From the NCBI GenBank assembly GCA_951406725.2, contig OX597824.1:53010001-53074000 (forward strand): a stretch of DNA of 64,000 bases, in the 5' to 3' direction. Below the pieces are notes generated by a model. It was not told the origin of the DNA and ran no database searches. It worked only from the letters and a program-made list of their open reading frames with translations. The translations under genes were made by a program, and so were the position numbers. Shown one piece after another: positions 16,459 through 61,080 of the stretch. Source of the stretch: Octopus vulgaris. Its lineage: Eukaryota. Each line of letters opens with the position of its first letter. Position 1 is the first letter of the stretch.

Positions 16459-16962
16459 TAGAAAATTACCATTTTTAAAGCTCACAACGAGAGATATTCA
16501 ATAACAGTTCTTTGGAGTAAAGATTTTTTGTCAACATAGCATTGAAGTCCTGGTTTAGGACGAATGTTGCTGTAATTCAGAGAAGATTCTTAGTGGCATT
16601 TCATCCATCTTACACTTTGCTGAATATCTCTCGTTGTGAGCTTTAAAAATAGTAATTTTCTAATTTATAGATCAGTAACAAGTTGTCACTTCGAAAACTA
16701 TATATTTCGAACGGGATTTTGACAGCGCCACCTCTAGCCGAACAATTATTCTGTGCTGATGAAGGAAAATAACCCGAAATCGCGATACACAGATATTGTT
16801 TTGAGCTGAGTGGGAGTCCTAGATTCCCTTGTTCGAAAAAATAAGAACACAGATCGTGTCGTATAGCCAGCTGGAGACGATATCTCCTGGAGCTCAATTA
16901 CAGCAACATTCGTCCTAAACCAGGACTGCCATGTTAAGTTGGCAAACAATCTTTACTCCAAG
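16459..16962 (+). mobile_element. Non-coding PLE-type insertion with internal inverted repeats and a hammerhead motif
   Basis: Interrupts the LINE, with AAAAATAAT on both sides (TSD-like). Inverted repeats 16459-16500/16621-16662 and ~16511-16576/16896-16961. Confidence 0.75.
16741..16800 (+). ncRNA. Type I hammerhead ribozyme (minimal stem III)
   Basis: AACAAT..TCTGTG CTGATGA AGG-aaaataa-CCC GAAA T CGCG A TA CACAGA.ATTGTT; predicted cleavage after AUA. Confidence 0.8.
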
Positions 16963-18039
16963 AAAAATAATGAACCATCCAAAATCTTATATAGAAAAGT
17001 TATATATACAACGTATCGAAGCTGGTAGTTTTCTTATACAGCTAGAAAACTATTACAAAATAACCACCATAGAACAACAGAAACACCTACTTTAGAAGCA
17101 AGGAAATCTAATACAAATAGCCACAAAACACGAACAAAACAAAAAACCGTTTTCAGTCTTTAAGGAAGCTGACAAATACATATAAACAAAGTCATACTAC
17201 CTAACTATGAAGAAAAAGATGAAACAACAAAAGTTGTAAGACAAATGAAATCCAAACTAAAACTGGAACAGCAACGGGTCATGAAACAGCTATTGAAAGA
17301 AAAGCCTTTTCATGGTAAATATTAGATTAAACTAAACAGAAAAGAAATAGACAAAGCGAAATCCCAACAATGGCTGAGAAGCTCAGGACTCAAAGCAGAG
17401 ACAGAAGGATTTTTAATTGCAGCAGAAATTACCAAAAACATGTAATGAAAAGAAATACAAGTAACTGCAGAATATTTAGGGATGGAGAAGAAACAATAAA
17501 TCATATTATCTCTGGTGGTCCAGTCCTGGCTAAGAAGGAATATATTCACAGACACGACAGAGTTGGGACCTATATACACTGGAAGCTATGCCAACACTAT
17601 GGAATAACAACAGAAAAAAGATAGTATAGGCACACACCAGAAAAGGTCACAGAAAATGAGAAAGCAAACATACCCTGAGATATGTCAATACACACAGAAA
17701 AAGAATTAAGGCCAATAGGCCAGATGCAGGTGTCAGAGATCACCAAGCAAAAATGCTTTCTGATCGATGTATTAGTATCAACAGATGACAATATTTCTCA
17801 GATCTGTAAATAGAGGTAATTTGAATGTGGAGTCTATAAACAAAAACAATTCCTATCATAGTAAAACTCTTTCAATGCAGTAAAAATAAGAACATCACAA
17901 CAAACCACAGCACATACCCAAGGCACACAGAGCTGCGCTCGGTAGTGCAGTGAAAACACATGATAAAAACAAGACTACTGCATAATAATAATAATAATAA
18001 TAATAATAATAATAATAATAATAATAATAATAATAATAG

Positions 18040-20462
18040 CATCCCAATTGACTGAGTGTCTAGAAAAGCACAATCCCCGCGTGGATGGTGACTGGGAGAA
18101 CAATACTTATAATGAAAGATAGAAGAAAGGGGAATATTGTGAGGAGACTACTGTCCCATAGCATGCCTAAACATAATCTGGAAGATACTTACTGGAATAT
18201 GTGCGGCAAAGACATACACATTTCTGGCACAGGAAGAAATACTACCAAGGAACGAAAAGGATATAGAAAGAATTCTCAGAGTACCAAGGATTACCTGGTA
18301 ATCGATAAAACAGTTTTAAGGCATTGTAAAAAACATCATACTAACATGTCTATAGCTTGCATTGGCTTTAAGAAGGCATATGATATGATGCCTCAATCTT
18401 GGATTGTTGAATGCCTGCATATGTTTGGTATTGCTGACAACATCACATATTTTCTGATGCATACCATGAAAGAGTGAAAAACCAAATTGTACTCAAGTAA
18501 TGTATTCCTTGGAGAAGTTAATATTAAAAGGAGAAGCTTCCAAGGTGACTCGTTTTCTCCGTTACTATATGTAATTTCACTAATACCCATAACAATGACA
18601 CTTAGGAAAGTTAAGATGGGTTACCTATGTGGGAGGAAAGGCCTATCATTGAAGCATCTTCTGTTTATGGGTGATCTGGAATTGTTTGGGAAATCTGAAA
18701 AACAGATAGATTCCTTAACCCAAAGCAGTCCAGAAGTGTGGTAGGGACATCGGTGTGGAAATTGAGATTACCAAATGCTCAGTACTTAATATGAAAAGAG
18801 GGAAGAAAGCATCCTGCAGAGGGTTGCGGTTACCATCAGGAGAGACTATGGATGAACCTGATGGTAGTAGGTATAGATATAGATTTTGGAGCTGGAAGAC
18901 ATTCTACGCAGAGAAATAAAATCAAGGTCAGCGGCGGGAGTCAAAAAGGGTGAAGGCGGTGTTGAAATCCAGCCTGAATCCCAAGAATTTGTTTACCGCA
19001 ATGAATATCTGGGCAGTTACGGTGGTCAGATATAGTGCGTCCATCCTCAAATGGACTAAGAGGAAATATCAATATTAGATAGAAGGAGGAGGTAGTTGAT
19101 GACGCTGCATGGGGAGCTACACCCTAAAACAAACGTAAACAGACTGTATATGAAAAGAAAGAATGGTGCAGATGACTAATTAGTATAGACCATTGTATAA
19201 TGAGTGAAAGGAGAGCACTTACCGAGTAAATCCTTAAATCCATAAAAATGTTTTAGCCCGAAGGCCGCGGCCATGCTGGAGCACCACCGCTGAATGAGCT
19301 ACACTAATATGTGAATCCACCTCTGATACGTGGCACTTGATTAACAAGGGAGTTCGATGCTGCTGCCCGCATCTGCGTCTCCTGTCCTGAGGTAGGTTCA
19401 TCTGGGACTCCCGACAAGAAGAGATCCTGTTTAGTTTTAAGGAAACCCACATCCACACCATGTAAGTCTCTCAGGCATTTAGGGAGGATGTTAAAGAGCT
19501 GTGGTCCTCTGAAACCCAAGCTGTTGCAGTATCTGGACCTGTATTTGATAAACAGTGATGAAAACCAGCTACAATATGCGAAAGATATGGCTGTAAATAC
19601 AAATGAAATGATGGGCAAGGAAGAGTTTAACCAAAGAGCTGAGGAGAAGAGAAAGGAAGACCTTGAAATGAGAATGCATGTACAGTTTTTAAGGAATATG
19701 CAAGACGTTCAGGAAAACACAGTATCGTGGACATGGCTTGAGAGAGGTGATTTGAAGCGTACCACCGAAAGCTTGATTATTGCTGCACAAGACCAGGCAA
19801 TCTCTACCAATTCAGTGACGTATAACATCTATAAAAGTTCTGAGACCAAGAAATGTAGACACTGTGGAAAGAGTTTGGAAAATGTGACCCACTTGGTAAG
19901 GGGATGTGAGAGCCTTGCACAAAAATAATACAAGCGCTGCCACTATAAATTGTTTGTGTATCTTCATTGGCTCTTATGCTGTAAGTACAATATGAAGTAA
20001 CAGAGAACTGGTTTGAGCATGTACCAAGTAAAATTATGCAGGAGGAGGGAGAAGTAACGATACACTGGGACACTCTCTGCCAGATATTGTCATATTGAAT
20101 AAGAGATACAAATACTGTCAGATCATTGATGTAGCCATACCAAATGATATGAATGTTGTGAGTATAGAAGTTGAAAAAATCACCAAGTACTCCGAATTGT
20201 AAGTGGAAATTGCAAAACTGTATGGAATGCGAGAGGGTAAAAGTGATACCAGTGGTGATTGGAGCGTTGGGTTCAATCTCATTGAAATTTCAGGGCTTCT
20301 TAAGGCAACTGGAAATCCCATGCAAGATTGATGTCATGCAAAGAGCTGCCTTAATGGGCATAGCGCAGATCTTGAAGAAAGTATTATGTTTGAGATCCTT
20401 GTTGTGACTTGACAAATGACTAAAGACTCCGGTGCATTTTTACCTACACTGTGATACGAAGG
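18040..20462 (+). mobile_element. 5'-truncated R4/Dong-like RLE LINE (family C), interrupted at ~19230-19540
   Basis: IGFKKAYDM, FQGDSFSP, HLLFMGDL, AAQDQAI, CRHCGKSLENVTHLVRGC, VVIGALG. Starts and ends at (AAT)n. Confidence 0.85.
19230..19540 (-). mobile_element. 5'-truncated copy of a CR1/L2-group LINE related to 4485-8290
   Basis: SLGFRGPQLFNILPKCLRDLHGVDV...SGVPDEPT...MRAAASNSL matches 4581-4847; same GGTGCTCCAGCATGGCC 3' motif. Confidence 0.88.
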
Positions 20463-59402: not shown

Positions 59403-60407
59403 TGAAGACGTTATTGCTGAAGACGGGAAATACTTTTCAAAATCTCACGTCGTCGTTGTAGTTTAACTCTAGGTTATCTCTGACCCAGTGCATATTTAAT
59501 CAAAAGCCTCTCACTGAAGATCATACCGTCAATTTTTAAGCACAATGTATCTTACAGCACATTGTCCAAAATCCAATGTATCCATTTTGAAACGAGTAGA
59601 GTAGGATTCGAGAGTGATTTAGCTACCATTTCTTGGCAGTAAAGTGATTGTATAGAGCTCCTTTAATAAGCAACTAACAAGTCTTAAATCAGAGCTTTAG
59701 TGACGTTTCTCTGCAATTTTAATTGAAATTACTGGACAATACGCTAAAAAATCTAAGGCTCACTGAGGGTTAACTTACATCAAGCATTAAAAGTGGCATT
59801 TATACGAAACATTGAGTAATGAACTGTATGTGCAATATTTTGCTTCTTAAACAAATCAATTCGTTTTTTCTTCTAATGGTTTAGTCATGAAAAAGAATAT
59901 GTACATTATTTAAACTACTCAGGCAAGATGGAAGACAGTGTCTCATTTTGCCCGAATAATTACAATAATGTACCAGTCTAATACTAGATTGAATTAATCA
60001 GTTTTAACTTCTCTTTACCACCTCAAAAAATTACTTATGAATTTGTACAAATACTTGAAATCAATATTCTTAAATATCTAACAATAACTACATAACTGAA
60101 ATATATACTGTTCTTATATTTCACCTACAACAGCAAGATGTTTCAACATAATAACCAACAGTGTATGAGTTATATCTAAACGCCAACCTTATTTTTTAAA
60201 TTCTTTTATTTGACTGCGGTCAGGCTGGAACACCGCCTTTAGTCGAACAAATCGACCCCAGGACTTAGTCTTTGTATGCCTAGTACTTATTCTATCGGTA
60301 TCTTTTGCCGAACCGCTAAGTTACGGGGACGTAAACACACCATCGGTTGTCAAGCGATGGTGGAGGGACAAATACACACATACATGTATATATATATATA
60401 TATATAT

Positions 60408-61080
60408 TAATCAATATAAGGGTAGCAAAAATTCAAGAAAAATTCTTCGCCACCAGCGGTCTAGTGAGAAAGAGAAATAGTCACAGACTATATATATATA
60501 AATTCAACAATATTAAGGAATGGCCTTGATAGGCCATTCGACCCACTAGAAAGGGCAGTCAAACTCAAACCGCTAAATAGTTGTAATTCTGAAATCAAAG
60601 GAGAAGTAAAAACATTTACCCTTATCATCTTTGGACTATGCATAGTTTCGACACTTTGGTAAACCCATTTAATTAAATTAAATTAAATTTGTTTACACCT
60701 GCCCTGTCTCGTCAGCAAAGAAGCCAAGGAAAATATATATCCACGAGGCGACACCAGCGACGCCTCGAGTCTATATACTCTAAATTTTCAAAATCCACCG
60801 TCACCGCGCTATTTTCTCAGCAGCAAATATAAACTGCTGATATAATTTCAAAATTAGTCAAAAAGTCATCAATTAATCAATATAAGGGTAGCAAAAATTC
60901 AAGAAAAATTTTTCGCCACTAGCGGTCTAGTGAGAAAGAGAAATAGTCACAGACTATATATATATAAATTCAACAATATTAAGGAATGGCCCTGATAGGC
61001 CATTCGACCCACTAGAAAGAGCAGTCAAACTCAAACCGCTAAATAGTTGTAATTCTGAAATCAAAGGAGAAATAAAAACA
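60408..61080 (-). mobile_element. PLE-derived element: ~205 bp direct repeats flanking a hammerhead-bearing core
   Basis: 60408-60613 is nearly identical to 60874-61080 (unit ~467 bp); inserted in (TA)n. Confidence 0.85.
60628..60721 (-). ncRNA. Type I hammerhead ribozyme with extended stem II
   Basis: Reverse complement: TCTTTG CTGACGA GACA...GTAAAC..ATTTAATT/AATTAAAT..GTTTAC...TGTC GAAA CTA TGCA TAG TC CAAAGA; canonical core; cleavage after GUC. Confidence 0.9.

Follow-up and report, generated by a model that had tools for sequence, protein, structure and literature searches.

We analysed a 64,000-nucleotide (nt) stretch of the Octopus vulgaris genome (assembly GCA_951406725.2, contig OX597824.1, forward-strand positions 53,010,001 to 53,074,000; hereafter the window, in whose own numbering coordinates are given). 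The window is AT-rich, crowded with microsatellites, and contains nine type I hammerhead ribozyme motifs spread over seven high-copy repeat families, designated A to G. The sites start at 16750 (A), 27350 (B), 29218 (C), 30518 (D), 37853 and 39007 (E), 44031 and 44753 (F), and 60628 (G). Because the two sites of E, and likewise those of F, are the two arms of a single insertion, the nine motifs correspond to seven insertions. It is highly probable, in our view, that the motifs are type I hammerhead folds belonging to three broken ends of Hydra-type Penelope-like elements and to four kinds of non-coding unit likely copied in trans by a Penelope reverse transcriptase (RT)-endonuclease. The families are real, and their kind is already known.

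The motifs were located with a descriptor scan of the window. It recovers all eight sites proposed in an earlier note on this DNA, one of them 9 nt downstream of the position first given (16750–16793 instead of 16741), and adds a ninth at 27350–27437 on the reverse strand, so that eight motifs in six families become nine in seven. The stem III loop sequences given there stand, and the GTTGAC loop, described as near-palindromic, is not only self-complementary but fully so in RNA, through tandem G·U pairs. Every one of the nine sites combines a stem I of 5–6 bp and the core with GAAA, a stem III that is self-complementary, and AUA, GUA or GUC as its NUH triplet; in seven of them (A, B, C, D, G and both of E) C3UGANGA9, G12AAA and U16.1-H17 follow one another in type I order. 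In 100 dinucleotide shuffles of the window (1-kb blocks), a comparison named beforehand in the earlier note, the mean count was 0.02 (maximum 1) with a palindrome filter and 0.27 (maximum 2) without it, against nine in the real sequence. The density of about one motif per 8 kb given in that note is a local value. Sixty position-blind 10-kb stretches (599,900 bases) of the genome (2.80 Gb in 227 contigs) yielded nine matches, in six stretches, compared with zero to one in each of ten shuffles of the same 600 kb. The resulting expectation is 0.96 motifs per 64 kb; the window is thus about ninefold denser than the blind sample and is a local hot spot. Extrapolation from nine matches in 0.6 Mb suggests roughly 40,000 intact-looking motifs genome-wide (Poisson limits roughly 19,000–80,000).

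Families E and C were taken in the earlier note, with the rest, for non-coding retroelements, a description that E, B and C do not fit. Family E comprises an inverted arm (37712..38245, reverse strand), which stops about 147 nt past the cut, and a direct arm (38262..39131, forward strand), the 3′ untranslated end of a Hydra-type element with RT and GIY-YIG domains. The truncation point of the direct arm is about 300 nt beyond the endonuclease stop, and the arm ends 41 nt past the cut in (TA)n. Its hammerhead (39007..39095) has stem I UUUCGG/CCGAAA, core CUGAUGA, a G-C closed stem II, stem III ACAAUUGU and triplet GUA, and the hammerhead of the inverted arm (37853..37941) is identical in core and stems. 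Family B (27315..28022, reverse strand) is the 5′-truncated 3′ end of a Hydra-type element; its hammerhead (27350..27437) has stem I GUGCAG/CUGCAU, core CUGAAGA, a G·U closing pair in stem II, stem III ACGGUCGU with tandem G·U and triplet GUA. Family C (29091..29717, reverse strand) is a similarly truncated end of an old element of the same type, with a hammerhead at 29218..29294 (stem I UGUCU/AGACA, core CUGAUGA, stem III ACAGCUGU, triplet GUA).

Copies of each family were sought genome-wide, with 40 candidates scored and 20–25 loci fetched per family. First-look candidates numbered 1006–2753 per family, and in all seven families the downstream boundary is sharp and the upstream boundary ragged. 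The window copies of E, B and C hold no coding sequence; longer copies outside the window have a GIY-YIG gene 0.7–1.5 kb upstream. Five of the 20 E loci have, on the same strand, a GIY-YIG frame whose end lies about 1030 nt upstream, and longer stretches have the RT C-terminus further upstream; in C, 2 of 25 loci (L097, L101) show a decayed endonuclease of E type at about 700 nt upstream; in B, a decayed GIY-YIG gene lies upstream in 1 of 25 (L148), in addition to a colinear relative (L271). The Pfam E-values of the E domain (2e-4 to 3e-4) are just under the cut-off. The E endonuclease has CxCX5C, CxxC and CxH motifs and no CCHH, the combination that characterizes the Hydra clade (PMC8557442). 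By eye, the RT part of E matches Hydra-1_Obim, the octopus Hydra element with a hammerhead already described by Craig et al. (2021, PMC8557442), and a frame at flanking locus L117 resembles the same element in the supplement of that paper. Judged from these sequences, each of E, B and C represents the 3′ end of a 5′-truncated Hydra-type Penelope-like element, the clade being called from the RT C-terminus and endonuclease in E and solely from the decayed endonuclease in B and C.

The earlier description as non-coding ribozyme retroelements does fit A, D, F and G. Family A has an inverted arm (16456..16580, reverse strand) that crosses the unit junction (unit positions 106–227) and a direct arm (16617..16961, forward strand) of a 350-nt non-coding unit. 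The direct arm stops at a first fixed site, 174 nt past the predicted cut at 16787^16788, and the inverted arm at a second. Hammerhead A (16750..16793) has stem I UCUGUG/CACAGA, core CUGAUGA, a short stem II, stem III AUCGCGAU and triplet AUA. The insertion sits inside a decayed RT fragment from an element without long terminal repeats (non-LTR; RT match 15674–16030). Family D, with a 565-nt unit, has a short inverted arm (30376..30414, reverse strand) flanked by (TA)n, which stops at fixed site 203, and a direct arm (30413..30868, forward strand) that stops at fixed site 294 within (TA)n; its hammerhead (30518..30580) has stem I UUUGAG/CUCAAA, core CUGACGA, an A-U closing pair in stem II, stem III ACGUUGACGU with tandem U·G and triplet GUA. 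Nearby, at 30213–30318 on the forward strand, is a piece with 75% similarity to the 3′ portion of family F.

Family F has an inverted arm (43844..44303, reverse strand) that stops at fixed site 190 in (TA)n and a direct arm (44304..45101, forward strand) that contains 1.4 units of about 555 nt and stops at the second fixed site, again in (TA)n. Hammerhead F (44753..44811) has stem I AUUAUG/CAUAAU, stem III ACGUACGU, triplet GUC and a variant core, UCGACGA (U3·G8, C4), and the same non-canonical core occurs in the inverted arm (44031..44089). The family G insertion (60406..61085, reverse strand) has (TA)n on both sides and contains 1.46 units of about 468 nt, starting about 16 nt past the cut position of the upstream unit; its hammerhead (60628..60721) has stem I UCUUUG/CAAAGA, core CUGACGA, a G-C closed stem II, a 12-nt stem III palindrome, ACUAUGCAUAGU, and triplet GUC. 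An extra nucleotide follows A9 in A, B, C and F and is absent from D, E and G. A canonical contact between loops 1 and 2 is unlikely in A, D, F and G because the stem II inserts are long.

From cut to cut, the units measure 350 nt (A), 563–565 nt (D), about 551–555 nt (F) and 458–470 nt (G), with a GC fraction of 0.33–0.39 and a longest ATG frame of 28–69 residues. We mapped insertion segments on circular unit references after dropping 16 overlapping loci (A 1, D 13, F 1, G 1). A segment exceeds one unit at 13/24 (A), 20/42 (D), 6/24 (F) and 14/24 (G) loci, D reading through up to three units, and both strands are occupied at 19/24, 23/42, 6/24 and 8/24 loci, respectively. Each family has two fixed 3′ ends, at 174/225 (A), 203/294 (D), 190/289 (F) and 144/228 (G) nt past the cut. 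Across the four families, 156 of 174 segment ends lie within 10 nt of either site, the sites having been defined from the same data used for this count; the two 21-nt windows span only 7–12% of the unit. In 39 of 40 head-to-head pairs the two arms end at different fixed sites. Insertions of D, F and G end in (TA)n, copies of the families occur on most chromosomes, and D is young, its best copies being 99–100% identical. A CCCU(U/A)A-like stretch, possibly an RT-recognition signal, stands 10–25 nt before most fixed 3′ ends in D, F and G, and the 3′ hairpin region of D and F is common to many related sequences on many variant contigs.

Short, low-GC, non-coding units and tandems with two complete hammerheads are what defines non-LTR retrozymes, and 5′ truncation, an inverted 5′ arm, a tail at one end and a microsatellite or AT-rich target make up the Penelope insertion signature; all of these are present. 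According to PMC11167929, AT-rich DNA is nicked by a Penelope protein, which starts complementary DNA (cDNA) at two internal sites that define the genomic tail. From the shared two-end signature we infer mobilization in trans by a Penelope protein; by their sequences, A, D, F and G are likely non-LTR retrozymes mobilized by such enzymes. An autonomous Neptune-like element (L178:1193-4937, C3) also has two end sites, with 27 of 39 matches ending exactly at +149 or +220 and five more at +221, and carries a U3-A8 hammerhead with stem III ACCGGU in both pseudo-long terminal repeats (pLTRs), at a period of 3994 nt. This family is very young (all 150 endonuclease matches that were scored are about 99% identical, and its open frames reach 869 residues) and is a candidate both for an active element and for an enzyme donor. 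The Neptune-like frames beside D (L139/L177) and beside C (L119/L178) were considered as parents and rejected, each being a neighbour that has its own hammerhead or abuts an inverted arm.

Stem III (15.2–16.2 plus loop 3) is palindromic in all seven families, in B and D through tandem G·U pairs (GUUGAC and GGUC included), which bears out the earlier assignment to Penelope-associated type I hammerheads with a palindromic stem III. The stems do not, as had been stated, differ completely between families: D and F are homologous families that have undergone compensatory changes, and their stem III series ACGCGU, ACGUACGU, ACGUUGACGU differs by indels at the dyad centre. In an alignment of D, F and two relatives, a set of six related sequences, 71 of 72 cells are paired and 4 of 12 pairs have changed on both sides; a G subfamily has likewise replaced a U-A pair of stem I by C-G. 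In all seven families, predicted folding favours the strand-swapped homodimer over two active monomers by 10.6–19.7 kcal/mol (in round figures 11–20), and it places that dimer within 1.1 kcal/mol of the cofold minimum in A, D, E and F. The predicted distance to the active monomer is 0.4–2.1 kcal/mol for D, E and G.

These properties fit a cycle in which a tandem transcript would bring two identical hammerheads together and these would swap strands, with the palindromic stem III and stem I pairing between copies; the swapped stem I strands come from different copies because of the double-hammerhead geometry in PMC4209133. Cleavage would release unit-length RNA, perhaps ligated to a circle. A Penelope protein would nick AT-rich DNA, cDNA would start at two internal sites, one for each strand, that lie 40–300 nt downstream of the cut, and reverse transcription would read back through an intact hammerhead, either uncut or re-ligated. 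Given such a cDNA start and the intact hammerheads of the inserted copies, the template would have to be either a ligated circle or tandem RNA that is still uncut. The palindrome would be the symmetry required by a homodimer and would drift through single indels in the centre; the specificity of families would come jointly from stem I, stem III and proximity in cis.

Mapping of 5′ ends (queries from about 25 nt past the cut; 30 matches per family) placed segment starts between −3 and +25 of the cut for 13 of 30 G matches, 6 of 30 A, 4 of 30 F and none of 30 D. Relative to the next 99 nt of the same family, a comparison that excluded a single A and a single F match with starts past +25, the stop rate in G is raised 2.6-fold (one-sided p=0.020, uncorrected for four families; several matches come from a shared insertion). 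The ratio is 1.0 in A, 0 in D and 1.6 in F (p=0.31 for F), so that these three families show no pile-up at the cut. Among the longer G copies, another three begin at +6, +11 and +17 of the upstream unit and two run past it; one G copy only starts exactly at +1. The G pile-up is a lead that fits cleavage, RT stalling at the folded motif or transcription start alike, and for the question of whether Penelope hammerheads cleave in vivo it is a cheap and testable one. The insertion junctions may, and we offer this tentatively, preserve the Penelope cycle as a fossil record, with units primed at both RT starts, one per DNA strand, a G template cut by its ribozyme in vivo and D produced by RT rolling round a ligated circle. 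If true, the genome itself would testify that hammerheads of the Penelope type act during transposition, and it would supply natural matched pairs: G and D for cleavage, and F and its sister with another palindrome for dimer specificity.

Several observations weigh against our overall reading. An Rfam match, which the earlier note had proposed as a check, was not obtained: no hammerhead family is among the matches listed for the whole window (best 150 of 181), nor did targeted scans of sites A and D return one. Rfam microRNA matches in the window were rejected as microsatellite artefacts. The main core of family F lacks the C3-G8 (or U3-A8) pair. No autonomous partner of the four non-coding families emerged: their units have no BLAST match to the two autonomous elements compared, the Neptune-like L178 and the Hydra-type L174. 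No complete E, B or C element is among the loci fetched. The predicted swapped dimer lies above the cofold minimum by 10 (B), 12 (C) and 3.4 (G) kcal/mol. Since D (0.4 kcal/mol) and E (1.3 kcal/mol) are so close to the active monomer, they may not need a dimer; for the same reason we discarded the idea that G alone is monomer-competent and hence cleaves, D and E being nearer than G. The shared origin of the fixed sites and of the counts made on them, and the small covariation set, belong here too. Finally, hammerhead cleavage proved dispensable for insertion in vitro (PMC11167929), and cleavage was found in just one of nine frog elements (bioRxiv 10.64898/2026.07.22.740005).

The Rfam results would suit the view that the motifs are chance matches in AT-rich repetitive DNA. 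The shuffles of the window and of the blind sample, together with the compensatory changes in the stems, already refute that view, to which we attach practically no probability. The Rfam hammerhead models are built on canonical short-loop forms, and Rfam overlooks those motifs of this genome that were run against it. A different origin for the short units, as satellite-like arrays grown from Penelope ends by DNA-level recombination with no retrotransposition of their own, has been discussed as a route in the 2026 preprint (bioRxiv 10.64898/2026.07.22.740005) and would account for the two to three tandem units at L028 and L224; it is very hard to reconcile with dispersal over most chromosomes, variable 5′ but fixed 3′ ends, the alternate sites of head-to-head arms and the 98–100% identity of D copies, and we regard it as highly improbable. 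More serious, though still unlikely in our estimation, is that most motifs are catalytically silent, the fold being kept as an RNA signal for the Penelope protein and copies arising from uncut tandem transcripts. That would explain the intact hammerheads of inserted copies, the read-through of D and its lack of 5′ ends at the cut, the amplification of F despite a U3·G8/C4 core, the low in vitro activity reported in PMC4209133 and the insertion without need for cleavage in PMC11167929. A merely structural signal agrees less well with the retention across unrelated families of the catalytic core, the NUH triplet and palindromes that are complete only in RNA through G·U pairs, with the U3-A8 covariation in the Neptune-like element and some F copies, or with the G 5′ ends just past the cut. 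The family F copies listed mostly read UCGAUGA or UCGACGA, with a few UUGAUAA, so that U3 is family-wide and C4 present in most; the core of the sister family L357 is CUGAGGA.

The earlier note further proposed that the palindrome could act as a family-specific dimerization code, which in its strong form would be selected to prevent cross-family cleavage. All seven window families do differ in palindrome, and their stem III heteroduplexes are predicted at −5.6 kcal/mol or weaker against −5.8 to −15.9 for homoduplexes, although B x F (−5.6) matches B x B (−5.8). Among 15 families compared (the seven of the window and eight from flanks and blind samples), however, four palindromes are common to nine families, CAAUUG recurring in three and CGUACG, CAUAUG and CCGG in two each. 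Three of the sharing pairs (E-N13, N8-N14, Neptune-N15) have no BLAST similarity around the motif, whereas the other sharing families are weakly similar and may share by descent. The L244 family carries the E palindrome with a different stem I. Swapped stem I forms at most two contiguous pairs on the weaker core in all 21 mixed pairs of window families, against 5–6 in homodimers; mixed dimers are thus already barred and the palindrome is not needed for specificity. Indels at its centre would account for the diversity without selection. The stem III loop can discriminate but is neither unique to families nor needed, and the code as proposed is improbable. A weak form may survive in F and L357, which keep six swapped stem I pairs on both cores and differ only in palindrome (stem III −2.8 kcal/mol for F x L357 against −9.8 and −7.5 for the homoduplexes); as the two share stem I, stem III would be the sole discriminator for that pair.

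Palindromic hammerhead families in Penelope ends, and a dimer and circle model for them, were described by Cervera and de la Peña (2014, PMC4209133). The octopus families resemble those metazoan pLTR hammerheads in type I topology, a small palindromic helix III, many diverse families per genome, opposite-strand copies 100–700 bp apart, the extra nucleotide after A9 (in A, B, C and F) and the U3-A8 variant; dimer cleavage and a circular intermediate are proposals in both cases. Their stem II inserts (up to 59 nt) and palindromes (8–12 nt with A15.1/U16.1) are longer, and they further differ in having tandem G·U centres in B and D, an N·N mismatch closing stem II in A, B, C and F, and the family-wide U3·G8/C4 core of F. 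With the Hydra clade of C-terminal EN+ (endonuclease-containing) Penelope-like elements (PMC8557442), E, B and C have in common the CxCX5C linker, CxxC and CxH-like motifs without CCHH, (TA)n targets, a hammerhead near the 3′ end, inverted arms and a tail, whereas their 3′ untranslated ends are longer (0.7–1.5 kb) and their hammerhead stems differ from those of Hydra-1_Obim. Supplementary file 1 of that paper yielded no match to the E palindrome or to two peptide motifs of E, which points to different families.

Retrozymes and a proposed Penelope mobilizer were presented by Cervera and de la Peña (2020, PMC7229834), and a Penelope origin of retrozymes in vertebrates by Li, Clavereau and Pollet (2026, bioRxiv 10.64898/2026.07.22.740005), in whose available text no mollusc appears. 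Families A, D, F and G are like the non-LTR retrozymes of both papers in being short low-GC non-coding type I units, from monomers to short tandems, with lengths inside the published 51–972 bp range, and Penelope elements are likewise proposed there as source and mobilizer. They differ in occurring in an invertebrate host, mostly as 0.6–1.8 units, in being known here from genomic DNA alone, and in that their Penelope link comes from two fixed ends and the alternate use of these in paired arms instead of co-occurrence or pLTR similarity. On the question of what mobilizes animal retrozymes, four non-coding families with the full Penelope insertion signature in an invertebrate constitute evidence independent of those published arguments. 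In vitro, the Poseidon element PAc (Frangieh et al. 2024, PMC11167929) similarly has two internal RT starts downstream of the hammerhead, yielding a tail, and AT-rich targets. PAc is autonomous, however, and has tails of 30–40 nt against 50–105 nt in octopus. RNA ends were not found at the cut of PAc; in octopus, the 5′ ends of G DNA are enriched immediately past it. A prior description of the seven families, or of heterodimer specificity, was not found in the open literature (subscription papers and Repbase/Dfam lay outside its scope).

The window and its surroundings hold a variety of other elements. A long interspersed nuclear element (LINE; 4584–8311, reverse strand) has a 791-residue frame with apurinic/apyrimidinic (AP) endonuclease and RT domains (4920–7292) and, upstream, a 263-residue CCCH zinc-finger frame (7523–8311), assigned with Pfam. 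At 10456–10548 (reverse strand), a short remnant of a Neptune-like endonuclease C-terminus runs into a (TA)n array, with no hammerhead after it, and several decayed non-LTR RT and restriction-like endonuclease fragments occupy 12000–20300. Fragments resembling Tc1/mariner transposases were recognized by eye at 46928–47254 (forward strand) and by helix-turn-helix (HTH) matches at 54264–54689 (reverse strand). Two diverged direct copies of a gag-like region, about 2.2 kb apart, span 49058–52874, and this region includes a 108-nt perfect inverted piece (49762–49869 / 50140–50247). A dispersed repeat resembling a short interspersed nuclear element (SINE), split by microsatellites, is present in six or more copies, at 30987–31397, 32148–32501, 53146–53573, 57781–58173, 60208–60384 and 61439–61585. 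Hammerhead families beyond the seven occur at L351:7049 and 8384, L380:5092 and 5752, L092, L052, L244 and L330, among them a U3-A8 tandem that repeats every 1335 nt.

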